This document shows positions 23,076-42,084 of a DNA stretch of 64,000 nucleotides, piece after piece; position 1 is the stretch's first letter, and every line of letters begins with the position of its first letter. The notes under the pieces were generated by a model that saw only the letters and a list, made by a program, of their open reading frames with translations, did no database searches and had not been told where the DNA came from. A program made the translations under genes and the position numbers. The DNA comes from Patescibacteria group bacterium UBA6805 (GTDB lineage: Bacteria > Patescibacteriota > Minisyncoccia > Minisyncoccales > Minisyncoccaceae): positions 1 to 64,000 of the forward strand of contig DKFD01000011.1 in the NCBI GenBank assembly GCA_002452735.1, given 5' to 3'.

Positions 23076-23080
23076 ATTGT

Positions 23081-24143: not shown

Positions 24144-24581
24144 TTAAAAGGTTTCTCTATAAGGATCTTTGGGAGAGTCGCCCGTCTCCTTCTTTTCCTT
24201 CTTTATTATATCATCTTTTTTGATTTTTGCATCTTCTTTCGGGATATTTCCTTCTTTTTCTTCATGAAGCTTGTCCAAAGAAACTCTTAAATACTTGAAA
24301 ATGGCCAGGTTTAGCTCTCTGGCTATCTTATTGGCAGTCTGTTCGTCAACGTTCAGTTCCAGTTCCAGAGTAATGGGGAATTCTTTCAGGGGCAAAAGAC
24401 CCATCAAAACTCTGCCCGTGTATTTGGCGGCGATGGATATCTTTTCTTCATCCAGTCCCATATCAGCGCATATTTTTTCAACCAGCTTGTTGTTTTTTTC
24501 GGAGAACACGGCTTCTTTCAAGTCTTCGGGCAGTTTTTCATATGTTTTCCAAAAGAATTCTTTGGTATATTCTTGTTCCAT
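24144..24581 (-). CDS. hypothetical protein
   Basis: ORF 24144-24659, likely start 'MEQEYTKEFF'; no recognisable motifs. Confidence 0.35.
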   Translation of the reverse strand: MEQEYTKEFFWKTYEKLPEDLKEAVFSEKNNKLVEKICADMGLDEEKISIAAKYTGRVLMGLLPLKEFPITLELELNVDEQTANKIARELNLAIFKYLRVSLDKLHEEKEGNIPKEDAKIKKDDIIKKEKKETGDSPKDPYRETF

Positions 24582-24708
24582 AAAATTACTATATTTTACC
24601 ACAAACAGCGGGGAGGTTTCAAGGCGTGGGGAGCGAGATGTTGACAAAAACCAGCACATTGTTTATTATTATATCAGTCCTTTGACAGGATGATACGGAG
24701 ACTTAACC

Positions 24709-25107
24709 ATGAGAAAGCAGAAAATCTGGATGGTCCTGGGTCTTGCTGTTGTCCTAATAGCAGCCCTGGTTGTGTGCGGATGTATGAACATGAGCGCCTC
24801 GTTCGCTCCCCCTGTTTCCCACTCCAATGAAGGGGTAATGTTTAAGGGGGTTGTTTCTTCAGTGACAATTTCTCCCCATAGCGCCCTGAACCGTATCCCA
24901 GCATATGTGGTGAGCGGTGGCGAGGCAGGCGGAACCGATTTTGCTATAGGGAACCTGGGAGATGCGAGGATCGTAATAAGAGACCCGCTTCTCATAGAGA
25001 AGATGGAAGATCTCAGGAAAAATCCAGGCCGCTATTGCGAAATAATGGCCGGACAAGTGACAGGAACCGAATATTGGGAAATAACCGATATTACGGTAAG
25101 TGCATAA
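24709..25107 (+). CDS. putative lipoprotein
   Basis: 132 aa; signal peptide with lipobox 'LVVCGC'; locally elevated GC. Confidence 0.45.
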   Translation: MRKQKIWMVLGLAVVLIAALVVCGCMNMSASFAPPVSHSNEGVMFKGVVSSVTISPHSALNRIPAYVVSGGEAGGTDFAIGNLGDARIVIRDPLLIEKMEDLRKNPGRYCEIMAGQVTGTEYWEITDITVSA

Positions 25108-25133
25108 CTTTATGTTTATGCACCTTTTTCTTT

Positions 25134-25162
25134 TACAAAAGATTGACAAAATAAGAGATTTA
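25134..25162 (+). promoter_or_regulatory. candidate sigma70 promoter TTGACA-17-TATCAT, followed by strong RBS AAAGGAGG before the 25238 ATG
   Basis: sequence motifs. Confidence 0.45.
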
Positions 25163-25237
25163 GTTTATCATTAAACAGCCTTTATTAAAGGCATTAATGT
25201 AACTTGAAAACCGAAAAAAAGAAAGGAGGAAAATTGT

Positions 25238-26614
25238 ATGAAGGATTTTGAGAAAACAGGAAAAACCGGAAAGAATGTTGAGCAAAAAGAAAACGAATTC
25301 GCCGTTTTTTCTAAGGGGATTATCGTTATTCTTGCCCCTATTTTAATTGCGTTTATGGCCTACGCGCTTGGACAGTGGAGTCCGTGGGCTTGGTTCTCTG
25401 TTATTTTTTCGTATATTTACATCCCATCTTATATCCTTGCTTTAGTGCTTGTTCCCCTTGTTCTTTATTTCTATTGGGCCAAACACAACGTCATAGGATA
25501 TTTCATTGAAGAAGGATACTGCATAATTTTCGCATGGAGCGGAGAAAATTTCGCCGGGGCAGACCTGCGATACGGCAAGGCGCGCTTTAATGAAAATTGG
25601 GACGTCGAGACGCCCGAAACTTCCGAAGAAAAAAAACCAATGTGGCAAAGAGGGAAAAAGATACGCATCGGAGGAATGGGTTTTTATCTCTGGCCTTTTA
25701 AAAGAATATACGAATATAATATGACTTGGGCCAAAAAGACGGAAAAGGGGGAAAGAGTTTCCAAAACCGAAAAACTTTCCCGCGTTCTTCTGAAGCCGTA
25801 CGTTTATTCTCTCGAGTATCAAAACATGGAAGATGCGGACAGAATGCCCATCAATATTGAGATAGCGGCTGAAATGCAAATAATAAACCCCATTAAAGCC
25901 CTATTCGGAGTGGAAAGATGGTATAGAGCCATCTTAAACATGACAGAGGGCGAGGTAAGGAAGTATATCGGGGAAAACCTTTATATAAAACTGATTAACC
26001 GTAAAAGTCAGGAAGAAGTGGGCGAAAAAATTAAGGAACAAATGAAAAACGTCTTGCAAGATTTTAATGCAGAGTATGGTGTCAATGTAAAGAGAATAAA
26101 AGTAATGCAAGTGGTTCCTTCAAGAAAAGAAGATGTTGAGGCAACTCTTAAAGCAATGCAGGCTGAAAGAGAAAGGGAGCGAGTAATAATCACAGCCCAG
26201 GCCGAAGCGGTTAAAATAGGGCAAGAACTTACGGGTGCCGTCATGCAGGCGCTGAGCTTGATGACCGGCATAAAAACAACCGAGCTCCAAGCGGAATTCA
26301 TCGCTGCTCCCGAGGCGTTTGAAAAAAAATACGGGGTAGCGTACAGGGAGGCCTATGACTTTGCGAAAAGAAGGATGGGCTTCGTCCAAAAAGGACGCAT
26401 TGAAATCATAACAGCCGATGGCTGCGACAAAGAAGGAAGTGCTTGTCCCAACAGCGGCGGCATAAATACGGACAAGTTGATAGAGGTTATAGCGGCGGTT
26501 GAGATGACGAAACAGGCGCTTTCCCAAAGGCCCGGGAGTCCTGCCCGGGAAGGAAGCGAAAAGAATCCTTTGTCTCTGGAAGAGAAAAAAAATAAGCTCG
26601 GACTAAAATATTAG
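25238..26614 (+). CDS. SPFH/band-7 (stomatin/prohibitin/HflK-like) membrane protein
   Basis: 458 aa; N-terminal TM helices, SPFH-like core 'VNVKRIKVMQVVPSRKEDVEATLKAMQAERERERVIITAQAEA'. Confidence 0.55.
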   Translation: MKDFEKTGKTGKNVEQKENEFAVFSKGIIVILAPILIAFMAYALGQWSPWAWFSVIFSYIYIPSYILALVLVPLVLYFYWAKHNVIGYFIEEGYCIIFAWSGENFAGADLRYGKARFNENWDVETPETSEEKKPMWQRGKKIRIGGMGFYLWPFKRIYEYNMTWAKKTEKGERVSKTEKLSRVLLKPYVYSLEYQNMEDADRMPINIEIAAEMQIINPIKALFGVERWYRAILNMTEGEVRKYIGENLYIKLINRKSQEEVGEKIKEQMKNVLQDFNAEYGVNVKRIKVMQVVPSRKEDVEATLKAMQAERERERVIITAQAEAVKIGQELTGAVMQALSLMTGIKTTELQAEFIAAPEAFEKKYGVAYREAYDFAKRRMGFVQKGRIEIITADGCDKEGSACPNSGGINTDKLIEVIAAVEMTKQALSQRPGSPAREGSEKNPLSLEEKKNKLGLKY

Positions 26615-26623
26615 TCCGATTTT

Positions 26624-27109
26624 TTATAACAATTCTTGGCTTATTCCCTCGGGAATTTTTCCTTTCTGCTCTAACGAAGAAGAATTTTCTTCCGCAGAAT
26701 AATCTTCATTGCCGTCTTCTTTCGTAAAGTCCCAAATTATCTCCTCGTTGTTTTTTATGGCTTGCGACACTTCCTCAATTATTTTTGGGTCTATATTTAA
26801 TTTTTCCAAAGCGGACTTTAAGATTTCGCCCAAATCATTAAAAGTTATTTCTTTATTGATTAGTTTTTCTATTATTTTTACAATCGCCACGGAGGCGGAT
26901 ACTTCTTCAATGGGCCTTTTAAGAGCAAGACACTCTTTAATCTTTTGGCTATGTAAAAATTTTGCCACCCTTCTTTCTTCCGGGCTTTCAGCCGATTGCA
27001 AGTTCTTCTCCAAAACAGGGTCATTCTCAACGAGGTCTTTTTCCAGGCCATGCCGAACAACAATGTTTTCTATAAAGTTTAATGTTTCTGTCGAGGGTTT
27101 TTTTCTCAT
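26624..27109 (-). CDS. hypothetical acidic protein
   Basis: 161 aa, no motifs; lies between the VirB6-like gene and the rest of the T4SS-like cluster. Confidence 0.35.
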   Translation of the reverse strand: MRKKPSTETLNFIENIVVRHGLEKDLVENDPVLEKNLQSAESPEERRVAKFLHSQKIKECLALKRPIEEVSASVAIVKIIEKLINKEITFNDLGEILKSALEKLNIDPKIIEEVSQAIKNNEEIIWDFTKEDGNEDYSAEENSSSLEQKGKIPEGISQELL

Positions 27110-27125
27110 ATTTGTTGATATAGAA

Positions 27126-29159
27126 TTAGGATATGGAGTTGGTAATAATGTCCAGTTTTTTGGTTATTTCTTTTTTCATGTTTTTTGCCTCTGTCGTCGT
27201 TAAATTATTAAGTTCTTGAATTTTAGCATTGGCCTGAGCCGTCCATATCTTATTGCTTTTTACGGCTTCTTTTTGTTCTTCGCTTAGGTTCTTGAAAAGA
27301 TTATAGATTTGCCTTTGGTTGAGGCCCGTTACATGCTTTTCAAAATCAAAACCGTCAAAAGTCGAGGGGTTTTGTAGCGCGTCTCTTTGCTGTTGCGTCC
27401 CGCGTTCATCAAAATATTTTCGGTCTTTTTCTGTTAGATTTGCCGCAACGAAAATATTCGTCAGAGAATCTGTCCTTATTTTTTCCTGTTTTTCTTTGGC
27501 ACTCATTTTTGACATAATGTCTGCCGTGGTTTGTTTTCCGTCCGTCAGCTTTTCAGCCTCTTGGGGAACAAACTTGGCAAACTCTTTTTTGCTAAACCCG
27601 TAGTTTCCGGCCGTCTTAATGTTTTTCGTTAAATAATCTATTTCTCCGTCATTAAGGTCTTTTTTCTCCATTAGTATTTGCAATGCCATGTGCTTTTTTA
27701 TGTTATCTTCTCTTGTCATGGGGGTAATGCCGCTAATTCTGCGCAATCCGTCGGTTGTTAAATTTTCCATCGGCTCTTTAAACTGTTTGAATTCTTTTTC
27801 TTCCATTCCTGCCGCAGTTCCCGGTTTTTCAAGGCCGATATCTTCTTTTCTCCTTGTTACCCATTGTTTTGCTCCTTCTGTTCGCTCCAGCGGAGATTTT
27901 ATCATCCCAGTCAAGCCGGCCGTGCTTGCAACCCTGCTTTTCTCGTCCACTTTGGCGGTCAGGGCTTCCTTAACACCGGTTTTTGTTCCGCCATACAGTC
28001 CCCCGCCCAAAACATAGGCGGCTCTTTTGGCCAGTCCATCGTCTTTAGTAAGAGCAGCCTGGGTTTTTGCTCCGGCATAGGCTCCGGTGGCGAATCCTGC
28101 TCCGGCAGCAGTCAGTCTTCCGAAGGCCTGCCTTCCATATCCGGTTGCCATTTCCGCTATTTGTCCGCCCGAAGAAACTGTTATGAAAAACCCGACAACA
28201 AGGAAGGCAAGGGGGACAATAAGACCAAGTAAACCACCAAGTCCAACAAGTCTTCCTCCTGGCTCTGAAACAAGCGGACTAATGGCCATCGTGGCCATTG
28301 TTTTATTTGACAGGTAGAGAGAGAAGCTGGCCGGAATACCGATAACCGTCCATTGAAGGAAATTGTTCCACCATTCATCCCAATAAGTGATGCTGGGAAA
28401 TATTTTTTGGAGATATTTTCCTTCGGGAAAAACCTTGCTGGCAAAGGCGATGGGAGAAACTATGACCAAAATCCACAATACAATGTGCCTGGCCAAGAAT
28501 ATGAAAGCGTAAAGGAAATATATGACAGTGGCGAATATGGCGAAAAGAAGGTAAGCGATAGGAAAAATGGGATCGTCAAAAGTAAAAGATTTGGACCGTA
28601 GTCCTTCGAGAATTATCTTTGCCATGTCGTAATTAATTCCACTGGTTAAAAATAAACCCATTAATTTGTTGGCAAAATCAATCATCACGCCGGCGATTAC
28701 CGGGGTGAAATTAATCAAAAGAGCTATGCCGACGAAATTAATCAATGCTTTTTTGGCTTTTGTTTCCTGAAAGCCGAGAATGATACTGATGGCAACGGCC
28801 ACCAAGCCGAAGACAAGAGCAACGTTGGCCAGGTTTCTTACCGTTTCCCATCCCATTTTGACGACGGGATTGTCTTGAATGGTGGTTCCCATGAAATCAG
28901 GACTGATAACCCAGGCCAACAAATCGTTGCCAACCTGCAATATTCCTTGGGCTATGCCAGAAAGCGTAAGGGTAAAGACAGCAAGAATCGCAGACCCTAT
29001 ATTAACAGAGTCTTCGTTTCCGCCAACAAATTGCGCTATCTTACTAATCATGGTGGCCCCGGCTATAATCTCAAACAGTTGAGCCCGGGCCAGAATAGGA
29101 GTAAGGATGAATAATAGAGAAAGGAAAATTATAAAAAATGTTTTGATTGAATGTTTCAT
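27126..29159 (-). CDS. VirB6/TrbL-like polytopic membrane protein with long K/E-rich C-terminal tail
   Basis: 677 aa; signal peptide, at least 6 predicted TM helices in the first 330 aa, Gly/Ala-rich linker, hydrophilic coiled-coil-like C-terminus; genomic association with VirB4. Confidence 0.5.
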   Translation of the reverse strand: MKHSIKTFFIIFLSLLFILTPILARAQLFEIIAGATMISKIAQFVGGNEDSVNIGSAILAVFTLTLSGIAQGILQVGNDLLAWVISPDFMGTTIQDNPVVKMGWETVRNLANVALVFGLVAVAISIILGFQETKAKKALINFVGIALLINFTPVIAGVMIDFANKLMGLFLTSGINYDMAKIILEGLRSKSFTFDDPIFPIAYLLFAIFATVIYFLYAFIFLARHIVLWILVIVSPIAFASKVFPEGKYLQKIFPSITYWDEWWNNFLQWTVIGIPASFSLYLSNKTMATMAISPLVSEPGGRLVGLGGLLGLIVPLAFLVVGFFITVSSGGQIAEMATGYGRQAFGRLTAAGAGFATGAYAGAKTQAALTKDDGLAKRAAYVLGGGLYGGTKTGVKEALTAKVDEKSRVASTAGLTGMIKSPLERTEGAKQWVTRRKEDIGLEKPGTAAGMEEKEFKQFKEPMENLTTDGLRRISGITPMTREDNIKKHMALQILMEKKDLNDGEIDYLTKNIKTAGNYGFSKKEFAKFVPQEAEKLTDGKQTTADIMSKMSAKEKQEKIRTDSLTNIFVAANLTEKDRKYFDERGTQQQRDALQNPSTFDGFDFEKHVTGLNQRQIYNLFKNLSEEQKEAVKSNKIWTAQANAKIQELNNLTTTEAKNMKKEITKKLDIITNSIS

Positions 29160-29229
29160 GGCTTGCCCTTATTGTTTTTTTTATGGTATAATTATTATAC
29201 CATTACTTTATTTTACGTTCAATATCCGC

Positions 29230-29529
29230 ATGTTAAATCTTAAATTCAGTCCGGAAACAGTGATTATGCTGACCTTCGCCGTTATCATAGACCTAATCGG
29301 GATAATCCTTATCTGTTTCGCCCTGGATGATTTCGGGGTTCTGGACATAGTGAGTGGCGTTATAATAGGTGGCTGGATGCTTTTCAGAAGGGGCCGGGTG
29401 GTGAATATCAAGACTCAAAAAAAGCAAATAGTGCGCTTCCTGGCGGGAATGGGGATAGAGATAACCCCCTATCTCGGCGCTCTTCCGGCCGTGACAGTCA
29501 TTACGCTTTTAACTTTAAGGGAAAAATAA
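29230..29529 (+). CDS. small 3-TM membrane protein, first gene of the pilin-fusion operon
   Basis: ORF 29107-29529; an internal start 'MLNLKFSPETVIMLTFAVII' avoids overlap with VirB6; candidate extended -10 TGGTATAAT at about 29187. Confidence 0.35.
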   Translation: MLNLKFSPETVIMLTFAVIIDLIGIILICFALDDFGVLDIVSGVIIGGWMLFRRGRVVNIKTQKKQIVRFLAGMGIEITPYLGALPAVTVITLLTLREK

Positions 29530-29530
29530 A

Positions 29531-32500
29531 ATGGACAAAAAGAAAATTATTTTTATTTTAATCCTTCTCGTTCTTCCTTTTTTTGTTATGGCTCAAGCCG
29601 GCCTGGAGAACGATTATCCGGCTATTGGCGGGACCCAACCCACGGACAGTTCTTCCCCGGCCGAATTCTTAAAATACATTTTCAACCTGGGAATTCTTTT
29701 CGGCGTCATTGCCGCTGTTTTCGTTTTGATTTCCCAGGGCGCGACCATGCTCATGGCCAAAGGAGAAATGGCCCTGGTCATTCTGGCTCAAGAAAAAATC
29801 AAAAGGGTTTTTGTCGGCCTCCTGATTCTTTTAGGCTCTTACATCATTTTAACAGCCATTAATCCCGATTTGAAGGTTATAAAATTCAGTCCCTTGGAAG
29901 TTTTTGAAAACATAATAAACAAGCCCGGAACCGAAGAAGAAACCTACCCTCTGTCGGAATTCGAGGAAATCCCCCTGGGCTCCATTCTGGAAAGCATTCT
30001 AGCCGCCAATTCTTCGGAAAGAATCTACAACGACAGAACCGAAGAGCTTTGCTACGCTTACGATGAAAACGGAGATACGATTGATAGAAATGACGACAAG
30101 AAGATAGACGAGAACGACCTGCTAAAAGGAATGGATATGTATTATTGCCTGTCGGAACTGAACAAAGCCATAATCAAGAAGATAAGAGATTTGAACGGAG
30201 GCAACTCTTTGTGTAACAGTCCCTCCAAAGGCGGGCCGATTGAAGAAATGAAAACTTTGATTGCCAGCGGCTGCAGCTGTCAGGCTTGTGATGTCTGGAA
30301 ACCAAATTATTATTGTCCGGGCTCCGAATGTTATCAGTGTATGACCTATGCCTGCGGGGAATGCAGTACTTGCTGTAAGGACCACTGCTCTTGTTGCGGC
30401 CGGGCTTATTACGCCCCGGATTTGGGTTGCCAACAGGTTAACGATAAATCAAGAGACCCTTGCGCGGCGGTCAGGGACGGCATAGATTGCGCCAGAAACG
30501 AAATCAAGCTGCGAGTTGACGGAAACGGATACGGCGTTCCAGGAGCGGCCGAGGATAAATGCGCTTTTACCAGATATTTCAACGAGAATGAATATAAGTT
30601 TTTAACAATCAGCGAGGGAAGGGAAAGGTTGGAATCGTTCAGAAACTATTTTCAGAACCATTTGACGGACTTGATAAAAGCGGAATCAATGATGAAATCT
30701 CCTTATGGGGAGAGAATATCGTTGGCCGAGTTTGAGGCCATTCGGTCCAAAGACCAATACAAAAAGACGGTGGCCAAAGAATTCCAAAACACCAACAGCG
30801 ATTATTCTTATAATCCGGTAAAATACTGTCGCGATTTCAATTGTACGGAATACAAAAACGGAGACGAAAAAAATCTTTGCGTGTCCGGAGGGAGAGTTGA
30901 TTTGACCCAGGAACTGATGGAAAAAGAAAAACTGATAGACCCCTTGTATGATAAGGAGCCCGAGATTTTTGACAAGAGAGTCTGCCAAGTAAATCAAATA
31001 CAAAACGGAAACGATACAGAGAGTTATTATTACGACGGCGACGGAGCGACCTTCTATTTCCAGGCGGGGTACAAGACAAAAAAAACAAGCAATCAAGAAA
31101 AATGCTCAATTGATTCCGCCATTGAGAAAGAAACCATCAAGAGCTTGATTCCTATTGGAGAAACGGTTGATGCTACGGAAAAATTCGCTGAAGACGTTTT
31201 GGTTTTAATAAATCAAATTATGTCGGAAACCCGGGAGACTATTGAGAAAGCAATTCAGTTAAGTGCCCTGCCAGAGAAGTGTGATTGTTCTCAGGGCTGC
31301 AGCAACAGATCTGACTGCAGATGTTCTACCAGCGAAGAAGGATGCACCAGCTGTTCTTGTGGTTCGTGTCTGGCCTGCGATGCCAGATCCCAAACGCTGT
31401 GCACTTGCTGTAAAGACTGCGAAGAGGTGGAGGTCGTTGATGAGAATATTCCCAGTCCTTGGGACGATATGACCAGTTTTGGCTATTGCCCGTCTTGCCC
31501 GTCCCTTTATTCGACCGGAGACGTGAACGAGTACTGGACCTATTGCCCTTGTAGCGGAATCCTGCTTTTTCCCAATATATCGCTTATTAACGACCCTAAA
31601 ACCCAGTTTTGTTATTTGGGAGAAGAGCTTGGTTCTTATTGTTCTTTAAGTTTTCAAGAAGAAAAATGCCAAACAGCATTTAGAAGATTGCCTTTAATGT
31701 GCATGCTTTCAAGAGTAAGCGCTCCCAGATTTGTAAATTATACCATAGAAAGCTGTCAAGCAGTCAGCCAGAACCCAACCGTGGCTCCCATTCTTTGCGG
31801 AAGCGGTTTGAATACTTATTACACTCAAAAAAACATTTTAACGTTAAAACCCAAGTCAGAAATAATCGTTGTTTGCGAAGGACAGCAGCCGGTTAATCAA
31901 GAAGCAATAAATAATTTAAACGTCCACTGCAGCACGAGTTGCAAGGGTGAACCGGGATGTCAAGGACGTCTTGATTGGATAAGCGCCGATGAATTTATCT
32001 TAACAAATTATTTCTGCAAAGGCCCCATGGCTCCGAAAGACCCCAAGGGCCTAATAGGGAGAGACAGTACGCCTTATAATAATTCCATGTCCATTTTTTT
32101 ACCCGGCGGCCATGAAATAGTCAGCATCGAGGCCATTCCTTTGACCACCGGCGCGAGGTCTGTCAAGTATTATCATCTCGGGGGTTGCTCCACGGAGTAT
32201 ACCGACGATGGACCGGTGGAGCATTGCACAGAAGCGGGCTACAACACCTATCATTTTTGGGACGGCGGTTATGCTTTGAAAATCAAGGTTGTCAATACGA
32301 TAAGAATAAAACGGGGAGAGATTGACAATCAGGCTTATTACGTCTGTCCCTATAATGACATAAAAGACAGGCAGTGCCGGATATTCAAATACAGCGACGA
32401 TGTAGAGCCGAATTATCCGGAAAACATTGATACGGATTACGACTGCCGGGATGAAAATTCTTCCGGCGCGGGATATCTTCAGAAGATAGAGCTTTTGAAC

Positions 32501-32902
32501 GACCGCCTGAACAATTTAATCCAAGGCAAAAACTTAAGGGAGGGCGATGTCAATCGCTGGACGATTCTGGAAAAGCTCTCTTTGACAAGAAAGAGGGCGG
32601 AATCCTGCGTCCGGGGCTATGGCTTTCCCCACAAAGAGGACTTGACCGAGCAAAGGATATTTTCCTGCCAGGAAGGGATTGATGCCACAATTTTGAATTC
32701 TTTGGTCGTTTTGCCCGACTTCCCCTACCCCCAAACCGGAAATTACTGGAATTGCTATCCTTTGAACAGCAGTTTTCTGACCAATGACCAGAAAGAATCT
32801 TGCTATATCAACAAAGATGCCGAGGGAACCGAAGCAGACCCGAAATGCCAAAGATTAATCAAGGGCATGATGGATAATTATTATTGCTGCCAGGGAGAAT
32901 AA
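29531..32902 (+). CDS. secreted VirB2/TrbC-like pilin domain fused to a very large Cys-rich ectodomain
   Basis: 1123 aa; signal peptide '...FFVMAQA', then two hydrophobic helices separated by a short 'AKGE' loop and ending 'ILTAINP' (T4SS-pilin-like); the remainder is dense with CxxC/CC clusters, e.g. 'CSCQACDVWKPNYYCPGSECYQCMTYACGECSTCCKDHCSCCG'. Confidence 0.6.
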   Translation: MDKKKIIFILILLVLPFFVMAQAGLENDYPAIGGTQPTDSSSPAEFLKYIFNLGILFGVIAAVFVLISQGATMLMAKGEMALVILAQEKIKRVFVGLLILLGSYIILTAINPDLKVIKFSPLEVFENIINKPGTEEETYPLSEFEEIPLGSILESILAANSSERIYNDRTEELCYAYDENGDTIDRNDDKKIDENDLLKGMDMYYCLSELNKAIIKKIRDLNGGNSLCNSPSKGGPIEEMKTLIASGCSCQACDVWKPNYYCPGSECYQCMTYACGECSTCCKDHCSCCGRAYYAPDLGCQQVNDKSRDPCAAVRDGIDCARNEIKLRVDGNGYGVPGAAEDKCAFTRYFNENEYKFLTISEGRERLESFRNYFQNHLTDLIKAESMMKSPYGERISLAEFEAIRSKDQYKKTVAKEFQNTNSDYSYNPVKYCRDFNCTEYKNGDEKNLCVSGGRVDLTQELMEKEKLIDPLYDKEPEIFDKRVCQVNQIQNGNDTESYYYDGDGATFYFQAGYKTKKTSNQEKCSIDSAIEKETIKSLIPIGETVDATEKFAEDVLVLINQIMSETRETIEKAIQLSALPEKCDCSQGCSNRSDCRCSTSEEGCTSCSCGSCLACDARSQTLCTCCKDCEEVEVVDENIPSPWDDMTSFGYCPSCPSLYSTGDVNEYWTYCPCSGILLFPNISLINDPKTQFCYLGEELGSYCSLSFQEEKCQTAFRRLPLMCMLSRVSAPRFVNYTIESCQAVSQNPTVAPILCGSGLNTYYTQKNILTLKPKSEIIVVCEGQQPVNQEAINNLNVHCSTSCKGEPGCQGRLDWISADEFILTNYFCKGPMAPKDPKGLIGRDSTPYNNSMSIFLPGGHEIVSIEAIPLTTGARSVKYYHLGGCSTEYTDDGPVEHCTEAGYNTYHFWDGGYALKIKVVNTIRIKRGEIDNQAYYVCPYNDIKDRQCRIFKYSDDVEPNYPENIDTDYDCRDENSSGAGYLQKIELLNDRLNNLIQGKNLREGDVNRWTILEKLSLTRKRAESCVRGYGFPHKEDLTEQRIFSCQEGIDATILNSLVVLPDFPYPQTGNYWNCYPLNSSFLTNDQKESCYINKDAEGTEADPKCQRLIKGMMDNYYCCQGE

Positions 32903-32921
32903 TAAATTAATTGAATCAAGC

Positions 32922-34247
32922 ATGAAGAAAAAAATATTATTTCTGTTCCTTCTGCTCTCTCTTGTTTTGGTTTCCAATGTTTATGCCTTGGAAGCGCAGT
33001 ATCCTGAAATTCTGGGTAAAACCATAACCGATGAAACCACGCCGGCTGGTTACGTGGTATATTTCTTCTATCTGGCCATGTCCTTGGGAAGCGTTCTGGT
33101 TTTCATAATCTTGGTCATGGCCGGAATTGATTTTATCACCGCAGGAGGAGAGCCGGCGAAAATAAGCGAAGGGAGAAAAAAGATAATCAGCGCCATTGTC
33201 GGCTTGATAGTTCTTTTCAGCTCTTTCCTGATTCTTAACAGTATCAATCCCGCCTTGCTGAAGATAGAGCTGGAAAAATTGGAATGTCCGGGAGGAATTT
33301 CAATCGTGAAGCAGAAAGCTGACGGGAAGAAAGTTGATGACTGCATAACCGGCAGCGTAAGCAACATCGAAGGAGACGTTATTGAGACAAAGGGATGGGT
33401 TTTTTCGGGTTGTCTCGTAAAAGAGGTCTATCTTTGCACTCAGCCGGGCTTCAAAGGAACCTGCACTAAAGTTTCTGACCCCAAAAGTCAGAATTTTACC
33501 TGCCAACCCAATTACCAGTTCACAAACGGTACCAGCTTAAGCGGAGTCAAATCAGTAAAATTCGTCTGGCGCTCACCCGGAGTATATTTGTACGACAACA
33601 TCAACTTTGAACCAAACGACCTCAGCAAAAGCCCGAAGCATCTCGGCAGCAACATTAAAAATATGAACGACGTCGGTTTTGACAATATGGCTCAATCATA
33701 CCAGTTAATTTTCCCGGAAACGGAAACAGCCGAAGAGATTCCGATATATTACGGTGCGGTTTTTTTTGACAGCTTCAATTATTCGGGCAAATGCAGTCTG
33801 GAAATAATGAACCAAAAGGACTTGGGAGTTCCCACTTCCATCGGAAGGAACACCTTGTCTTCGGCCATTGTTTTCACCCAAAAAGAGACCGATACCCTCA
33901 AGGATTTGGGCGACATTGTTTTGTACAATAACATAGATTGCGGACAAAGTACCAGCGAGGAAGTAAAGAAATGCTCCCTGAATATTTACAATTACATAAC
34001 AGTCGGAAAGATTAAAGACGATTGTCCCGAATTCGAGGACGGAGACTACGTGCTTTCTTTCAGCATCAACGGACCCGGAGGCATGATTTTAAAAGGAAGC
34101 CAGAACGCGCTTTGCGAATATTTTGATTCCAAGAGCATGGTTTCCGGCAGTTGTTATCCGAGCTTAAAAACCAAATCAACAATTTACGTCCAGGGGCCTG
34201 GAGGAACCAAGCCTGAGTCTTATATAATCTTCCCGGTGGACAATTAA
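32922..34247 (+). CDS. secreted VirB2/TrbC-like pilin domain fused to beta/gamma-crystallin-like repeats
   Basis: 441 aa; signal peptide, pilin-like helices '...VLVFIILVMAGIDFITAGGEPAKISEGRKKIISAIVGLIVLFSSFLILNSINP'; C-terminal repeats with Greek-key-like 'GVYLYDNINFEPND...SYQLIFPE' and 'AVFFDSFNYSGKCSLEI...LSSAIVF'. Confidence 0.6.
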   Translation: MKKKILFLFLLLSLVLVSNVYALEAQYPEILGKTITDETTPAGYVVYFFYLAMSLGSVLVFIILVMAGIDFITAGGEPAKISEGRKKIISAIVGLIVLFSSFLILNSINPALLKIELEKLECPGGISIVKQKADGKKVDDCITGSVSNIEGDVIETKGWVFSGCLVKEVYLCTQPGFKGTCTKVSDPKSQNFTCQPNYQFTNGTSLSGVKSVKFVWRSPGVYLYDNINFEPNDLSKSPKHLGSNIKNMNDVGFDNMAQSYQLIFPETETAEEIPIYYGAVFFDSFNYSGKCSLEIMNQKDLGVPTSIGRNTLSSAIVFTQKETDTLKDLGDIVLYNNIDCGQSTSEEVKKCSLNIYNYITVGKIKDDCPEFEDGDYVLSFSINGPGGMILKGSQNALCEYFDSKSMVSGSCYPSLKTKSTIYVQGPGGTKPESYIIFPVDN

Positions 34248-34252
34248 TAAAT

Positions 34253-35467
34253 ATGAAAAAACTATTTACAATAATTTTGGCCTTTTCCCCTGCCGTCGTT
34301 CTGGCCCAGTATCCGATTATCAGCGGAAGAGCCATAACCGACAAATCCACTTTTTCCGAATATGTTCTTTACTATTTCAGCTTGGCCCTGGTTGTCGGGA
34401 TTGTGGCCGCGGTTCTCGTCTTGATAACCGCCGGCATCAATTTTCTGATTTCCCGGGGGGATTTGTACAGAAGGAACAACGCCAAAAGAATGATAACCGG
34501 CGCTTTTGTCGGCTTGGTCGTTCTTTTCGGTTCTTTTGTAATTTTGAACGCATTAAATCCTTCATCTACGGGCTCGATTCTCGATCCGGAGCCGATTGTC
34601 GCTAACGGCATTTATCTAATCAAAGAAGACGGGGAAAAACTTTTAATCTACCAGAATATCGGCAACACCGAAAAGAATTTTAACGGCATAGAATGGATTT
34701 CCAGCCAGGAAGATTTACCGGCGATATACGTTTACGCCGATAAAGGCTTCAAGGGCGTGCCCGTTGAAATCAAGAACGGAGAATCTCTCCCCATTTCCCA
34801 GGGCTCTTCAATCGCCTTTTTATGGAAAACCGTCGGAGTTTATCTTTACGACAAGACGGATTACCAATTAAACGAAAAGAGCATTCCTTTGCCGGTCAAG
34901 TTCGACCAGCCGTCTCTGGGAAGCAGTTCTTTTGATAATATAGTGCAATCAATTAAGATAAATCAGCCCGAGGATGGTTCGGTTTTGGGCGTTGTTCTTT
35001 TTTCAGAGCCCGACTACAGGGGAACCTGCTCCTGGGTTTTGGGAGACATGCCAGATTTGAGTCAGACAAGGAGCGAAGAAAACAACCCGGCCTTGGGCAA
35101 CGGCATCCTTTCTTCTTTGATTGTTTTGAACACGGCTTCGGGCTCGCCTACGGCCACTTTTTACAATAGAGCCGATTGCCAGCATGTTGAACAAGACCCG
35201 AGAAGCAAGAAATGCAGCATCTCTGTGATAAATAAAACAGAAACCTTCAAGGAATCCTGCCCCGACTTTGAGGGAGATATTTTGTCTTTTGCCTTAAGCC
35301 AAGGGACAGCCGTACTTTTGAAAACGGAAAACGGCCAGTGCCAGTTTTTCAAAAGGCAAAAACCCCAAGAATGCGTCAGTTTGATTAAATACAGCTATAT
35401 TTACAGTCCCGACCCCGAAAAATCCCTTACGCCCTATTCTTTCACTATATTTTCTTTGGAGAAATAA
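34253..35467 (+). CDS. secreted VirB2/TrbC-like pilin domain fused to beta/gamma-crystallin-like repeats (paralogue of the preceding gene)
   Basis: 404 aa; same N-terminal architecture ('...VLITAGINFLISRGDLYRRNNAKRMITGAFVGLVVLFGSFVILNALNP'); 'GVYLYDKTDYQLNE...VQSIKINQPE', 'VVLFSEPDYRGTCSWVL...LSSLIVLN'. Confidence 0.6.
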   Translation: MKKLFTIILAFSPAVVLAQYPIISGRAITDKSTFSEYVLYYFSLALVVGIVAAVLVLITAGINFLISRGDLYRRNNAKRMITGAFVGLVVLFGSFVILNALNPSSTGSILDPEPIVANGIYLIKEDGEKLLIYQNIGNTEKNFNGIEWISSQEDLPAIYVYADKGFKGVPVEIKNGESLPISQGSSIAFLWKTVGVYLYDKTDYQLNEKSIPLPVKFDQPSLGSSSFDNIVQSIKINQPEDGSVLGVVLFSEPDYRGTCSWVLGDMPDLSQTRSEENNPALGNGILSSLIVLNTASGSPTATFYNRADCQHVEQDPRSKKCSISVINKTETFKESCPDFEGDILSFALSQGTAVLLKTENGQCQFFKRQKPQECVSLIKYSYIYSPDPEKSLTPYSFTIFSLEK

Positions 35468-36364: not shown

Positions 36365-37336
36365 TTGGTTCTGTCTGCTGCCTTAACCGTCTTCTTTTCC
36401 GCCGACAAAGATTCAAACAAGGTGGTTGCCGCGAATCAAGCTAATCTTATCAACATTGAATCAAGTTTGCAACCAGTGACAAGTATTATTACAGGGGAGA
36501 ATAATGTTTTAATAGCCATTTACTCTCCTCTTTTTGTTTCTTCCCAGGCCTTGGGCTCTATATTTGAAGACGGAAAAGACAATTCTATTATTAAATATAC
36601 GGTGAAAAAAGGGGAAACCGTGAATCAAATAGCGGAAAAATTTGACATTTCCGTGGAAACCATACTTTTGGTCAACGAACTGGGTTCCACCAAAATAAGA
36701 GAGGGCGACGAACTGATGATTCTGCCCGTAGACGGGCTTCTTCACATGGTGGAAAGCGGAGAAACGATTGAAAAGATAGCCAAAAAATACAGCGTCCAAT
36801 CAGGAGAAATAATCGATTTCAACGGATTATCGGATAAAGGAGAGGTTTTTGTGGGGGATATTTTAATCGTTCCCGAAGGAAAAATGCCCAAATCGTCTCC
36901 GATGGCCAGCGCTCCCGTGGCTCAGGTTACTCTGCCCGACTCGTATTTCATTTCCCCTGCCACCGGCATAATCACTCAGGGGGCTCACTTTTCCCATATT
37001 GTCAATGGATACAGGCAGTATAATGCGGCAGATATCGCCAATGCTCTGGGAACGCCCATTGTGGCCGTGGCTGGCGGACAAATTCAGATCGTAAAGACGG
37101 TCTGGCCCTACGGCAATTATATAACAATTCTTCATCCCAATGGCGTGGTTACTTTGTACGGCCATTTGAATTCTTTTGCCAAAGACATCTATTCGGGAAA
37201 AAATGTTTCCCAGGGCGAGATTATCGGATACATGGGAAGCACCGGCTACTCCACCGGTTCCCATCTTCATTTTGAAGTCAGAGGAGCGGCTAATCCCCTT
37301 TTGAAGTACGGGGTGGGAACAAAAATCGTCTATTAA
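36365..37336 (+). CDS. LysM-domain M23 family metallopeptidase
   Basis: 323 aa; two LysM repeats ('YTVKKGETVNQIAEKF', 'HMVESGETIEKIAKKY'), M23 motifs 'HFSHIVNGY...AADIA' and 'GSTGYSTGSHLHFEV'; begins with TTG, no in-frame upstream ATG. Confidence 0.8.
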   Translation: MVLSAALTVFFSADKDSNKVVAANQANLINIESSLQPVTSIITGENNVLIAIYSPLFVSSQALGSIFEDGKDNSIIKYTVKKGETVNQIAEKFDISVETILLVNELGSTKIREGDELMILPVDGLLHMVESGETIEKIAKKYSVQSGEIIDFNGLSDKGEVFVGDILIVPEGKMPKSSPMASAPVAQVTLPDSYFISPATGIITQGAHFSHIVNGYRQYNAADIANALGTPIVAVAGGQIQIVKTVWPYGNYITILHPNGVVTLYGHLNSFAKDIYSGKNVSQGEIIGYMGSTGYSTGSHLHFEVRGAANPLLKYGVGTKIVY

Positions 37337-37344
37337 AAAACGCC

Positions 37345-37710
37345 CTAAGGGGCGATTTTTTTGTTGCATTCGTTGCAGGTTCTGGCTTCGGGAAAGATTT
37401 TTAACCTGTCCAGGAGTATTTCTTTATCGCAATTTTCGCACATGCCGTAAGTTCCCTTCTCCATTTTTTCCAAAGCCAAACCAATGTCTTTTAATTTCGT
37501 TTCTAGGGCGTATTCCACGGGCAGGAGATTTTCATATTCCTCCACCTCGTCGGCCTCTTCTTCCAGGCCTTCCCCGGGATTATTGGGGTAGCGTGTCTGC
37601 CAGTCGTTATCAGTGCTTTTCTGGGCGAACCTTTCCAGCTCTTTTTCTGTCTCTTTTTTACTTAACTCCAATTGATTTTTTAGTTTATCTAAGATATTTT
37701 TTTCCATCAT
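37345..37710 (-). CDS. DksA/TraR-family C4 zinc-finger protein
   Basis: 121 aa; coiled-coil N-terminus, 'CENCDKEI...CNECN' zinc finger. Confidence 0.65.
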   Translation of the reverse strand: MMEKNILDKLKNQLELSKKETEKELERFAQKSTDNDWQTRYPNNPGEGLEEEADEVEEYENLLPVEYALETKLKDIGLALEKMEKGTYGMCENCDKEILLDRLKIFPEARTCNECNKKIAP

Positions 37711-37784: not shown

Positions 37785-39176
37785 TTAGAGATCAAGCTGG
37801 GTTTTTGGTTCATTGTTTTGCTCCGTTTTTATTTCTAATTTGTCCAAGTCGATGTTTGTCGCCTCTTCTTCCAGTTTGTCGATTTTTAAATCTATTTTAA
37901 AAATCTCATTTTTAATGTTTTTGGCCCTTGAAGATACCAGTTGATATTTTTCTCTGAATTCGGCTCTTTGTTTTTCTACTTTATTCAGGGCGTCTTCGGC
38001 CTCCCACCTTTCTTCCTCGGTTGCCCTTCTTTTGTTTTCCGCCTGTCTTCTTTCTTCTTCTATTTTTCTGATTTCCGTCGGATTTTCAATAACAACACTT
38101 CCTCTTTTTTCCGTAATTTTTATTTCTTCCTCGACGGATTTTTCCTTAAGCATTATGTCGGTGAGCTTTTTTTCCAGCCGGTCTTTTTCTTTGGTGTTTT
38201 CTATCATTTTTTCCTTAATTTCAAATCCCTCCTTGCCGATATTTTCCAGTTCGACAAACAGCCCTTGCCTTTTTTCTTTTAAAAGGATTTTTTCCCTGTC
38301 CCCTCTCAGCATTTCCAGTTCCAGGTTAAGTTGTTTTTCTTTGGACAGAACTTTTTCAAAGGTTAGAACGCATTCTTTGAGCTGCGATCTCAGCGATTTG
38401 ATTTCATCTTCTTTTTTGTTTCCCTCTGCTTCAATTACGTTTCTTTCGTCTTCAATCTTCCATCTTTCTTTTTCCATTTTCCTTTTTTCTTCGGGGTCCC
38501 TGGAAGAAGATTCTTTCATCTCTATGCTTTTTTTGATTTCCTCTATCCTCTTTTTTCTTTCAGTAATGAGTTCAAGTTTTTTCTTGGACCTTTCTACCTC
38601 TCTTTCAATCTCCTGCTTTCTTTCTTCAAAAGGCATTTTTTCTTCCAGAACCTTTCTTAGATTTTCTTCTATTTCAAAAGTAAGGTCTGTAATTTTTCTC
38701 AGCTTTTCTTCGGCATTTTCCTCAACCTCTCTTTCTTTGATGTTCTCCATGGAAATTTCTTCTTCGGGTCCTTCTTTTGCCTGGGGCGCTTCTTCGGCCG
38801 GCTCTTCTTTGACAACAAGAGGCTCTGGTTCTGTGACGGGCTCTTTTTCAACAACAGGCTCTTTTTCCATGACGGGAATTTCCGGAGGAGCAGGCAGAGG
38901 AATCTCTTCTTTTTCCTCCGGAGTCCCTATTTTTTCATTTTGCAACGCCAATTCTTCCGAAGAAAAGTATCCTTCAGTTTCTTTGGGAGGGGCGGGAGGA
39001 AGGATTTCTTCTGTGGACTCTATTTCGGCGGTTTCATATTCTCCTTCAATAAGGGTTTCGTCTAAAAATTTTTCCTGGGCCTCCTCTGTTTCTCCTTGTT
39101 CTGCTTTGGCTAAATCTTTCTTCATGGTTCGTATCTTGTCGCGATTTAGCCTGAAAACATTTTTTTCCTCAACCAT
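37785..39176 (-). CDS. hypothetical Glu/Lys-rich coiled-coil protein
   Basis: 463 aa; low complexity, heptad-like E/K repeats, Pro/Glu-rich central linker. Confidence 0.4.
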   Translation of the reverse strand: MVEEKNVFRLNRDKIRTMKKDLAKAEQGETEEAQEKFLDETLIEGEYETAEIESTEEILPPAPPKETEGYFSSEELALQNEKIGTPEEKEEIPLPAPPEIPVMEKEPVVEKEPVTEPEPLVVKEEPAEEAPQAKEGPEEEISMENIKEREVEENAEEKLRKITDLTFEIEENLRKVLEEKMPFEERKQEIEREVERSKKKLELITERKKRIEEIKKSIEMKESSSRDPEEKRKMEKERWKIEDERNVIEAEGNKKEDEIKSLRSQLKECVLTFEKVLSKEKQLNLELEMLRGDREKILLKEKRQGLFVELENIGKEGFEIKEKMIENTKEKDRLEKKLTDIMLKEKSVEEEIKITEKRGSVVIENPTEIRKIEEERRQAENKRRATEEERWEAEDALNKVEKQRAEFREKYQLVSSRAKNIKNEIFKIDLKIDKLEEEATNIDLDKLEIKTEQNNEPKTQLDL

Positions 39177-39185
39177 ATTGTGTGT

Positions 39186-41288
39186 TTATTTTCTTGCTTC
39201 TTTTAATGATAGATTAATTCTGCCCTGTTCGTCAATAGAGACGACTTTCACGGGAACAATATCCCCAATTTTCACCACGTCGCTTACCTTGTTTACCCTT
39301 TTTTCCGATAATTGAGAAATATGAACCAGGCCTTCCTGCCCCGGAAGCATTTCCACAAAGGCCCCGAAGTCAAGGATTCTTTTGACCTTGCCTTGGAAGG
39401 TTTCTCCCACCACGACTTCTCTGGTGATGTTGTTAATCCATTCCAGGGCTTTTTGGGCCGATTCTTCTTTTTCCGCGGTTACGAATATTTCGCCCGTTTC
39501 TTCAATGTCAATGGAAACGTTGCAAGCGTCGATTATTTCATTGATAATTTTTCCTCCCGGGCCGATGACCTCGCCGATTTTCTCGGGATTGATTTTGATA
39601 ATGAATATTCTCGGCGCATAAGAAGACAGTTGTTTCCTCGGTTCAGGGAGAACCGCCCTCATTTTTTCCAGGATTTCCAGTCTGGCTTTTTTTGATTGTT
39701 CCAGCGCCTCTTTTATTATCTTCCCCGTAATACCCCTGACCTTTACGTCCATTTGCAGGGCATTGATTCCGTCTTTTGTCCCGGCCACCTTTAAATCCAT
39801 GTCTCCGTAGTGGTCTTCCTGTCCCTGGACATCGGTAAGAATCTTGTATTTTTTTTCTTCCGTGTTTTTGTTTTTGTCCATTTCCATCATCATTCCCATG
39901 GCAATACCCGAAACAGGATTTTTAATGGGAACTCCTCCGTCCATCATGGCCAGACAAGCAGCGCAAGTTGAGGCCATCGAACTTGAACCATTTGAACACA
40001 AAACTTCGGAAACCAGCCTAATGGTATAGGGAAAGATTTGAGCATCGGGGATAACCTGCCTTAAGGCCTTTTCTGCCAGCATGCCGTGTCCGATTTCTCT
40101 TCTTCCCGGACCCCTCAGAGCGCCGATTTCTCCGACGCAGGAAGGAGGAAAGTTATAGTGGTGCATGAATCTTTTTTTCCCCTCGACTTCCATTTCTTCC
40201 ATTATTTTTTGCTCTCCCGGAGAACCCAAAGTCAGAAAAGAAAGAACCTTGGTTTGGCCTCGGCAGAATAATCCCGAGCCGTGGACTCTTTCAAAAAGTC
40301 CGGCCCGGCAGTTAATTTCCCTGATTTCGTTGAGGCCCCGGCCGTCAATTCTTAAATTGCGGTCAATGACCATCTGATGTATTGTTTTTTCTCCTTCTTG
40401 CTCCAAAAGATGAAGGCCGTGGCTTACCTTCTCCGCTTCCTCATATTTGTTTCTTAAGTGTTCTTTTAATTCTTCTCGGAAAGAATCAAAGTCTATGAGG
40501 GATTTTTCCATCTTCCCTTCGGCGAATTCTTTTATTTCCTTTTCCAGCTCCTCGTCCTCTTTTTTTTCTCCAAGTAATATTTTTTCTTTTCCCATTTTTT
40601 GGGCGATTTCTTCCCCGAAAATCAGCAGCTTTTCCTGAAGAGGCCTGGTTTTTTCAATGGCCTTGTTGATTTCTTCTTCTTGGGCTCCGTCAAATTCTCC
40701 CTCAATCATATTGACCAAAATTTCTTTTTTTGATTCTGAATAAAGAGCCGAAAAGAACAAATCAAAGCTTCCTGCCTCCCGTTCCTCTTTGGCGGGGAAG
40801 GCCACAAGTTCTCCGTTCTTTTTTCCCATTCTTAAGGGGGCAACCGGTCCGTTCCAGGGTATATCCGAGACGAGAAGAGCCAGAGAAGAGGCAAAAAGGC
40901 CTAAAACCGCCGGGTCATTTTCTTTGTCCCAGGAAATACAGGTGGCGATGATTTGAACTTCCCGCTTGAAATTATCCGGGAAAAGAGGCCTGATTGCCCT
41001 GTCAATCAGCCTGGAATTAAGAATGGCTTTTTCACTCGGCCTCGACTCTCTTTTTAAAAATCTTGAGCCCAGGATTTTGCCCACGGCGTAATATTTTTCC
41101 TCGTAAGTCACGGTTAAAGGAAAAAAATCGCTTCCCTCGATTTCTTTCTTGGCCATTACGGCCGTTGCCATTATTATCGTGTTGCCGAGCTTTATCCAAA
41201 CCGAACCATTGGCCCTTTCGGCCAGATCGTTTATCTCCACCTCCAAAGTTTTGCCGTCAACGTCTAATTTAAAGATTTCGGATTTCAT
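39186..41288 (-). CDS. pnp: polyribonucleotide nucleotidyltransferase (PNPase)
   Basis: 700 aa; two RNase PH domains, KH and C-terminal S1 domain 'GETFQGKVKRILDFGAFVEM'. Confidence 0.95.
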   Translation of the reverse strand: MKSEIFKLDVDGKTLEVEINDLAERANGSVWIKLGNTIIMATAVMAKKEIEGSDFFPLTVTYEEKYYAVGKILGSRFLKRESRPSEKAILNSRLIDRAIRPLFPDNFKREVQIIATCISWDKENDPAVLGLFASSLALLVSDIPWNGPVAPLRMGKKNGELVAFPAKEEREAGSFDLFFSALYSESKKEILVNMIEGEFDGAQEEEINKAIEKTRPLQEKLLIFGEEIAQKMGKEKILLGEKKEDEELEKEIKEFAEGKMEKSLIDFDSFREELKEHLRNKYEEAEKVSHGLHLLEQEGEKTIHQMVIDRNLRIDGRGLNEIREINCRAGLFERVHGSGLFCRGQTKVLSFLTLGSPGEQKIMEEMEVEGKKRFMHHYNFPPSCVGEIGALRGPGRREIGHGMLAEKALRQVIPDAQIFPYTIRLVSEVLCSNGSSSMASTCAACLAMMDGGVPIKNPVSGIAMGMMMEMDKNKNTEEKKYKILTDVQGQEDHYGDMDLKVAGTKDGINALQMDVKVRGITGKIIKEALEQSKKARLEILEKMRAVLPEPRKQLSSYAPRIFIIKINPEKIGEVIGPGGKIINEIIDACNVSIDIEETGEIFVTAEKEESAQKALEWINNITREVVVGETFQGKVKRILDFGAFVEMLPGQEGLVHISQLSEKRVNKVSDVVKIGDIVPVKVVSIDEQGRINLSLKEARK

Positions 41289-41551: not shown

Positions 41552-41577
41552 ATTTTTATTATTTATCTTTTTCTTGT

Positions 41578-41650
41578 GCCCCGTGAAGGACTCGAACCTA
41601 CAACCTTGAAGTTAAGAGCTTCCTGCTCTGCCAATTGAGCTAACGGGGCT
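41578..41650 (-). tRNA. tRNA-Lys (anticodon CTT)
   Basis: manual fold: acceptor GCCCCGT/ACGGGGC, D-arm GCTC..GAGC, anticodon loop CTCTTAA, T-loop TTCGAGT; one G-A at 27-43 and one T-T in the T-stem; no encoded CCA. Confidence 0.65.
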
Positions 41651-42042: not shown

Positions 42043-42084
42043 AAGCTTTTTTGAGTATAGCGGTTTTAAGTAAAAAAATCAAGG

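Follow-up and report, generated by a model that had tools for sequence, protein, structure and literature searches.

Predicted VirB2-type pilin modules joined to large ectodomains in the type IV secretion locus of a Minisyncoccales bacterium

Introduction

What is the role of large secreted proteins that begin like a pilin and are encoded beside a type IV secretion system (T4SS)? This question is raised by a stretch of 64,000 nucleotides from Patescibacteria group bacterium UBA6805 (order Minisyncoccales; contig DKFD01000011.1, positions 1 to 64,000), referred to below as the window. Three consecutive genes on its forward strand, at 29531-32902, 32922-34247 and 34253-35467, encode modular proteins of 1123, 441 and 404 residues, which we call P1, P2 and P3, and a gene on the reverse strand at 41650-42042 encodes a stand-alone protein of 130 residues, P4. 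All four open reading frames (ORFs) lie exactly where an earlier reading of the same DNA, the original prediction, had placed them. That reading described P1–P3 as pilins of the VirB2/TrbC type with large added ectodomains, a description that we examine here by profile, structure and neighborhood comparisons.

The ultra-small Patescibacteria are parasites that are thought to need a T4SS for life on their hosts. According to reviews, the role of this system is "completely unknown" (PMC11665869), and the one Patescibacterium with workable genetics cannot do without the T4SS and its pilin array (PMC10633639). For the Patescibacteria T4SS, neither an adhesin nor a tip protein of the VirB5 type has been found (PMC12102498).

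Results

To characterize the N-termini of P1–P4, we analyzed their hydropathy and their AlphaFold2 models. Each protein starts with a signal-like hydrophobic segment that has small residues at positions −3 and −1 (AQA followed by G in P1, VYA followed by L in P2, VLA followed by Q in P3 and VLG followed by Q in P4). After the signal, all four have two further hydrophobic segments of at least about 19 residues, separated by a short loop bearing Lys or Arg. In the structural models these segments form the two helices of a hairpin, which span residues 43–75 and 80–110 in P1 and residues 41–73 and 78–108 in P2. The results bear out the earlier claim of a Sec signal and of two helices separated by a basic loop, and they fit a hairpin with both ends outside (N-out, C-out). 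The loop Lys is near-invariant in family alignments. The four N-terminal segments show 24–36% identity to P1, and the pairwise identity of the P1–P3 modules is 27–45%. The proposed common ending ILNxxNP holds for P2 (ILNSINP) and P3 (ILNALNP) and, in the form ILTAINP, for P1, whereas the IL(N/T)xxNP motif is absent from P4.

We then compared the modules with known pilin families. The Pfam cut-off for PF18895 (T4SS_pilin) is 26.6 bits. P2 exceeds it with 30.0 bits over module residues 24–110, and P4 reaches 53.3 bits against this model and 22.4 bits, under the model's own cut-off, against TrbC/VirB2. P3 scores 22.3 bits against PF18895 (E 1.4e-4), which is under the cut-off. P1 has no direct match to PF18895, and its annotation is empty in Pfam, NCBIfam and PHROG alike. 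Its family, however, comprises 34 homologues of 820–1230 residues; PF18895 is matched by 15 of them (best E 6e-10) and TrbC by one (PF04956; E 3.1e-7). In addition, when the N-termini of the P1 family were compared by hhalign with the family of stand-alone pilins, aligned from sequences of seven genomes, the probability was 96.9% and the E-value 1.8e-10 over 74 columns, with the G, K and G-L positions retained. A pilin profile thus recognizes all four proteins, P2 and P4 directly and P1 and P3 through their families. The P1 module itself corresponds to 29597-29869 (+) and is T4SS_pilin-like by hhalign and by the PF18895 matches of its family. A hidden Markov model built from the four modules found no fifth copy among all 546 window ORFs of at least 50 residues. 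When the module profile was searched against the PDB, it returned no VirB2-family pilin, only G-protein-coupled receptors and designed helices at E>0.3; Pfam is therefore the sole link to the solved pili. The alignment and profile searches support the pilin identity that had been proposed, and on this sequence evidence we take the N-termini of P1–P3 to be genuine T4SS_pilin (VirB2/TrbC-related) modules. Only P4, however, has the size of a small single-domain pilin (about 7–12 kDa when mature). P1–P3 contain a pilin domain, yet they are not canonical pilins.

To determine how common this architecture is, we searched 1.84 billion cluster representatives exhaustively with HMMER, using a module profile of 85 positions. 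At E<=1e-3 the profile matched 43,899 proteins, of which 1,711 also pass E<=1e-10. Among the best 150 of the 43,899, 46 have a single module and 104 have 2–11 pilin modules per polypeptide; 43 of the 46 single-module proteins are at least 240 residues long with the module at residues ~22–120, although this list is biased, since fusions make up three of the four sequences in the query. All of the 48 long proteins that were scanned match PF18895 (best E 9.5e-19). Pfam recognizes nothing in most of their C-terminal parts and, in the rest, Inhibitor_I36 (two proteins), Crystall (one, E 6.7e-5), Dockerin_1 (one) and Big_5 with TIG (one). A second, word-indexed search with the P1 alignment gave no new subfamilies. 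An N-terminal pilin followed by a long C-terminal domain is, as judged from these predicted proteins, a widespread architecture.

Many of the predicted polypeptides have more than one module. P0059 has six tandem pilin modules of ~90 residues in a total of 552, P0106 has eleven modules and a Cys-rich tail, and P0064 and P0071 consist of repeated units of a pilin module and an ectodomain. A metagenomic protein of 2072 residues, P0208, combines PF18895 with Big_5 and TIG Ig-like domains and is the adhesin-like extreme of the architecture. The array papers examined describe separate genes, not multi-module polyproteins of this kind.

In principle, the N-terminal helices could be ordinary signal-anchor or transmembrane segments that resemble pilins in composition, in which case P1–P3 would be unrelated secreted proteins located beside a T4SS by chance. 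Spurious weak matches of this sort do occur, as between P3 and DUF2085 or Cyt_bd_oxida_II, and the PDB search with the module returned only receptors and designed helices. Nonetheless, this explanation is hardly credible in view of the P2 score above the Pfam cut-off, the PF18895 matches in almost half of the P1 homologues and in every long protein scanned, the positions conserved in the hhalign match, and the synteny with VirB4 and VirB6 genes in every locus examined, which is described next.

A scan of genome contigs with a single peptide pattern yielded nine loci and is not a census. In all, about ten related Paceibacteria/Minisyncoccales genomes share the layout of the operon. The loci that were read belong to close relatives and to distant ones at 30–44% identity, and the latter include Ca. 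Microsyncoccus archaeolyticus, a Nealsonbacteria metagenome-assembled genome (MAG) and several Paceibacterota MAGs. In every locus examined, dnaA, rnpA, yidC and jag are followed by VirB4, PrgI and the cluster up to a TrbL_3 protein, and divergently from the latter are encoded one protein of 800–1230 residues and then one to three of 340–480 residues, each of which starts with a pilin module. P1 is single-copy in every locus. The survey therefore confirms that the fusions co-occur with VirB4, VirB3 and VirB6-like genes throughout the set, which runs counter to the condition under which the original prediction would have been refuted, namely that homologues are never found together with VirB4/VirB6.

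Immediately after helix 2, at residues ~105–125 of P1–P3 and outside the Pfam model, lies the junction motif IL(N/T)T-I-N-P-x-L-x-x-(I/L). The INPxL motif also terminates the short stand-alone pilins P0152, P0157 and P0178, and the ectodomains are therefore appended to a complete pilin module. The motif could be the terminus of the fold, a subunit contact or a processing site. If it were a processing site, P1–P3 might be precursors that are cut at or near INPxL, so that the ectodomain is released, either secreted or directed to the host, and a small pilin is left behind. The strong conservation of INPxL exactly at the module-ectodomain boundary is consistent with cleavage, as are the many database proteins with 2–11 modules, which have the appearance of polyproteins. 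There is a precedent in that both TrbC and VirB2 undergo C-terminal processing before they mature, and for P-type pilins such as TrbC of RP4 this processing is established. On the other hand, the ORFs scanned in the cluster include no dedicated TraF-like peptidase, the occurrence of INPxL at the end of stand-alone pilins means that it may just mark the end of the pilin fold, and tandem modules are topologically consistent without cleavage. Overall, we consider release of the ectodomains quite improbable.

Beyond the junction, the three proteins differ. In P1, the signal (residues 1–22) and the module (23–113) are followed by a helical, Cys-rich core (114–590 and 941–1123), which is interrupted by a β-rich insert (591–940, encoded at 31301-32350, +). 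P1 has 66 Cys residues, many of which are invariant across the 34 homologues. The AlphaFold2 model has a mean pLDDT (predicted local distance difference test) of 67.5, and the insert is modelled at low confidence; structure comparison of the ectodomain gave no informative fold match. The insert shows 51% identity to its counterpart in the related locus L001, compared with 79–85% for the flanks, and 23% compared with 44–47% in L010. It thus diverges between genomes about twice as fast as its flanks. The family falls into two length classes, one of 820–890 residues, in which the insert is shortened or absent, and one of 1090–1230 residues.

P3 is a full-length paralogue of P2 (31% identity end to end, E 1e-48). 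Structure comparison showed that the ectodomains of both have a paired Greek-key β/γ-crystallin fold, in agreement with the crystallin-like character that had been noted from the sequence. Sequence comparisons were non-significant: P3 matches Pfam Crystall (PF00030) at E 0.17, P2 does not match it, and the P2-family profile finds crystallins in the PDB at E ~0.8. The crystallin assignment of P2 and P3 therefore rests on fold and motifs. The Ca2+-binding motif N/D-N/D-x-x-S/T-S is partly retained, as DNMAQS and RNTLSS, and the crystallin-like modules are possibly Ca2+-dependent. Given the predicted topology of signal peptide, transmembrane helix, basic loop and transmembrane helix, the C-terminal regions of P1–P3 must be extracytoplasmic, as the original prediction had supposed. 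Neither sequence nor fold comparison found any likeness of these regions to VirB5/TraC/TrwJ or to PrgB.

Of the four proteins, P4 varies least between genomes, with 92% identity to its counterpart in L001 (74–89% for the others) and 58% in L010 (23–47%). Its gene abuts tRNA-Lys (41576-41649), is preceded by tRNA-Arg (42083-42156), and has rpsO-pnp just upstream; in relatives the stand-alone pilin also lies beside rpsO wherever the retrieved locus reaches that far. This context suggests strong, perhaps co-transcribed, expression. P4 is a candidate major subunit, a role that fits both its conservation and its tRNA and ribosomal-protein context. In the family alignment, the mature N-terminal segment of the stand-alone pilins has two invariant Cys residues (VPCGG-x6-8-C-x-F; within 41653-41973, −, in the window), which the fused modules do not have.

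The genes for P1–P3 form a tight operon, with intergenic gaps of 19 nucleotides between P1 and P2 and 5 nucleotides between P2 and P3. A small membrane ORF of ~99 residues with three hydrophobic segments lies 5′ of P1 (29230-29529, +). It ends 1 nucleotide before P1 and probably opens the operon, which would then have four genes. The original prediction did not mention this ORF, although its coordinates begin at 29230. A longer form of this ORF, with a start at 29107, was rejected: it overlaps the start of the divergent VirB6-like gene, and a promoter-like site falls inside it. ORFs of 102–118 residues hold the same position in L001, L004 and L005, and no counterpart is present in L006; the product has no match in Pfam, NCBIfam or PHROG. 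That it might aid pilin insertion, by analogy with the F-plasmid TraQ chaperone, is pure speculation. As had been stated, the operon is transcribed divergently from the VirB6-like gene (27126-29159, −). In the intergenic region between the two, upstream of the ATG at 29230, two back-to-back promoter-like sites, at 29163-29192 (+) and 29222-29194 (−), each have a TATAAT box and an extended −10 TG; they are consensus matches only.

Beyond the VirB6-like gene lie the VirB4 genes (21294-23722, −), with a forward-strand SPFH gene between. The VirB4 ATPase is encoded at 21294-23153 (−). Its TraC-like or TrsD-like N-terminal part is a separate ORF of 213 residues at 23081-23722 (−), and this split is kept in relatives. 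The VirB4 matches are P-loop_TraG, AAA_10 and CagE_TrbE_VirB, together with NCBIfam VirB4_plasma and, for the N-terminal ORF, TrsD. With its listed GTG start, the ATPase ORF would run 73 nucleotides into the upstream one; in relatives the ATPase has 593–598 residues and no overlap, and the true start probably lies further downstream. A PrgI/VirB3-like protein is encoded at 23722-24141 (−), with a match to PF12666 (PrgI) of 23.3 bits and E 9.8e-5 that is below the cut-off; its orthologue in L005 also matches PrgI, weakly. Then follow two small uncharacterised ORFs (24144-24659 and 24669-24995, −), the SPFH/Band_7 protein (25238-26614, +) and an uncharacterised ORF of 161 residues (26624-27109, −). 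The gene order of this part (24144-27109) is common to L001–L006. The SPFH/Band_7 gene sits on the opposite strand inside the T4SS cluster, as it does in L001–L004 and L006, while in L005 an unannotated gene of 418 residues occupies that place. To our knowledge, SPFH proteins are not standard T4SS components. The VirB6-like polytopic membrane protein itself (677 residues; TrbL_3-related) has no direct Pfam match, and it shows 37% identity (E 2e-112) to a Microsyncoccus orthologue that bears PF19590 (TrbL_3).

Downstream of the operon are ksgA, a LysM-M23 gene, a DksA/TraR zinc finger, a long coiled-coil protein, pnp, rpsO and P4. The LysM and Peptidase_M23 cell-wall hydrolase (36365-37336, +) has conserved synteny in relatives and is a candidate VirB1 counterpart; VirB1 homologues with M23/LysM domains are associated with VirB4 in Paceibacteria (PMC12102498). 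The DksA/TraR-type zinc finger (37345-37710, −) and the Glu/Lys-rich coiled coil of 463 residues (37785-39176, −) keep their positions in all related loci, and an opposite-strand ORF of 427 residues at 38032-39315 is an apparent low-complexity artefact.

The setting of the locus is chromosomal and origin-proximal, with dnaN, dnaA (18084-19445) and rnpA and yidC (19784-20831). A relaxase and a VirD4 family were looked for among the ~45 window ORFs scanned, and neither was found. We rejected an origin from a mobile element or phage on account of this housekeeping context (dnaA, dnaN, rnpA, yidC, ksgA, pnp and rpsO), the lack of any PHROG match and the flat GC content. Elsewhere in the window, a T2SSE-family ATPase (PilB/GspE-like, E 6e-115) is encoded at 9175-10479 (+), ~12 kb from virB4, and by its predicted family points to a distinct machine, either a type 4 pilus or a type II-like system, in the same origin-proximal region. 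A protein of 1468 residues with about ten Kelch repeats and Fib_succ_major (54191-58597, +) is another candidate for a large surface protein.

Discussion

We propose that P1–P3 are VirB2-type pilins of modular build, whose host-binding domains are displayed on a T4SS filament made mainly of P4 or at its tip, and we consider this proposal to be about evenly poised between right and wrong. After export and cleavage of the signal peptide, the hairpins would rest in the membrane like VirB2, and the VirB4/VirB6 machine would then extract them and build a short filament or stalk consisting mainly of P4. The modular pilins would enter this filament sparsely or at its tip, because 35–110 kDa per protomer misfits a five-start lattice with a rise of ~13 Å. 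In F and T pili the loop between the helices lines the lumen and the termini face outward, and a C-terminal fusion would for this reason be surface-exposed. The exposed ectodomains, that is, two paralogous crystallin-like modules together with a large helical, Cys-rich protein whose insert evolves fast, would contact the host envelope. P1–P3 would thereby fill the adhesin or tip roles of VirB5 in diderms and of PrgB-type adhesins in Gram-positive bacteria, both of which are missing here.

Several considerations weigh against this proposal. A domain of 300–1000 residues on every subunit misfits the VirB2 lattice, and sparse or terminal incorporation is an assumption. We know of no Patescibacterium in which a T4SS pilus has been seen. 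The core of P1, strongly conserved and with invariant Cys residues, looks more structural or enzymatic than like a variable adhesin. Membership in PF18895 is a statement of homology, made from sequence, and P1 and P3 individually miss the Pfam cut-off. Finally, the present results fit incorporation into a filament and simple membrane anchoring alike.

If anchoring is the function, the hairpin would only hold the protein in the membrane and dock it to VirB6, and P1–P3 would be fixed in the cell's own membrane and never polymerise. As fixed T4SS parts they might then take the place of VirB5, VirB8 or VirB9-10, for example in the form of a stalk or cap that spans the wall, or they might be surface adhesins beside the machine. 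In favor of this view, the core of P1 is highly conserved and helical with invariant Cys residues, like a structural component, P1 is present as a single copy in every locus, and large ectodomains are hard to fit in a VirB2 lattice; moreover, Gram-positive-type T4SSs normally have no pilus (PMC12857230). However, the module comprises an entire pilin domain, which is found on its own as well, with a conserved loop Lys and an INPxL end, and a plain anchor needs no such module kept across diverse ectodomains. We regard anchoring as the main rival to our proposal, a real possibility and a doubtful one.

The display of host-binding domains by P1–P3 may also be a particular case of something broader. 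The VirB2-type module might serve as a universal "plug", by which the VirB4/VirB6 machine extracts diverse cargo ectodomains and presents them on the filament or at its tip; we consider this generalization unlikely. The cargo would comprise crystallin-like, Cys-rich, dockerin and Ig-like domains, and tandem polyproteins too, and the machine may even insert cargo into the host envelope. In Minisyncoccales, the large and conserved P1 would then stand in for VirB5 while anchoring itself, and it would both nucleate the filament and touch the host, be it an archaeon or a bacterium. If true, this would define a T4SS subunit of a new kind and open a direct way to study how epibionts attach and feed.

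The finding overturns nothing that is established. Pilin modules with large, lineage-specific ectodomains are nonetheless obvious candidates for the missing host-contact parts, and the crystallin-like domains and the conserved Cys-rich protein with its variable insert are concrete targets that can be cloned. Experiments may be possible in Ca. Microsyncoccus archaeolyticus, which has the same operon and is named for archaeal parasitism. In addition, the tandem multi-module polypeptides suggest that the VirB2 family is more flexible than the textbook 7-kDa pilin.

In the original prediction, the arrangement could not be mapped to a described system. It does map to one: the locus is the known chromosomal, oriC-proximal Patescibacteria T4SS with an array of VirB2-like pilins (PMC12102498, PMC10633639, PMC7427843, PMC12857230). 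This T4SS is monophyletic, MPF-FATA-like, often dnaA-proximal and usually without a relaxase (PMC12102498). In a survey of 3,035 genomes, VirB2-like pilins were present in 1,948 assemblies and "VirB2 arrays" of 2–11 divergent genes in 383, an array being defined as 2–11 pilin genes in tandem or one gene apart near virB4, with a mean identity of 25% and a maximum of 54%; PrgB-like adhesins were not detected in Patescibacteria (PMC12102498). In Ca. Southlakia epibionticum, the T4SS and a predicted pilin series (SEML1_0006-0019) are essential (PMC10633639), and Nanosynbacter lyticus TM7x has an array of 4–6 small secreted proteins (PMC7427843). According to a 2025 review, Patescibacteria T4SSs are unique among monoderms in their potential for conjugative pili, whereas Gram-positive-type T4SSs otherwise lack VirB2 and VirB5 (PMC12857230).

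The present locus has the features of such an array. Its three tandem genes lie 6–14 kb from virB4 and their modules are 27–45% identical, it is chromosomal and near dnaA, rnpA and yidC, and the ORFs scanned include no relaxase. As in the known arrays, tandem, divergent genes of the PF18895/TrbC type with Sec signals stand beside VirB4, VirB3 (PrgI) and VirB6, and a P2 orthologue is already labelled "pilin" at NCBI. The difference is that here three members bear ectodomains of 300–1000 residues and the only small pilin lies 6 kb off. Fusions of VirB2 or PF18895 pilins to large domains, and of the crystallin fold to a T4SS pilin, are not described in the searchable literature, a body that excludes most subscription-journal papers, and a text search of the four array papers (PMC12102498, PMC10633639, PMC7427843 and PMC12857230) found array members described as small proteins and no mention of pilin fusions. 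The pilin arrays are thus already known, and it is the large fused ectodomains that appear to be new.

VirB2, TrbC and TraA of the T-pilus, RP4 and the F-pilus share with P1–P3 the signal peptide, the two-helix hairpin with its basic loop and the linkage to VirB3, VirB4 and VirB6, but these canonical pilins have ~70–130 residues and no extra domain. Diderm T4SSs differ further in that the host here is of the monoderm type, without an outer-membrane core complex or VirB5. With VirB5 (TraC/TrwJ) and PrgB, P1–P3 have in common the proposed role of a machine-associated protein that contacts the target and perhaps nucleates or caps a filament, and the core of the P1 ectodomain is a long helical bundle, as is VirB5; those proteins, however, have no pilin module and match P1–P3 neither in sequence nor in fold. 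The ectodomains of P2 and P3 resemble the microbial β/γ-crystallins (Protein S, spherulin 3a, clostrillin and M-crystallin-like proteins) in fold, and differ from them in the non-significant Crystall match and the partial Ca2+ motif.

The closest parallel in design is found in the modular type IV pilins PilB and PilC of S. sanguinis, minor subunits in which an adhesion module is grafted C-terminally on a pilin module (PMC8179133, PMC9934059). Type IV pilins belong to an unrelated superfamily with a class III signal peptide, a prepilin peptidase, a long N-terminal helix and PilB/PilC assembly. P1–P3 show none of these features and have a Sec-type signal and a two-helix hairpin instead, and the type IV pilins are analogues only. 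If P1–P3 do display their ectodomains on a filament, the "modular pilin" principle, which to date has been established in type 4 pili alone, would hold for VirB2 filaments as well, although the two families are unrelated.

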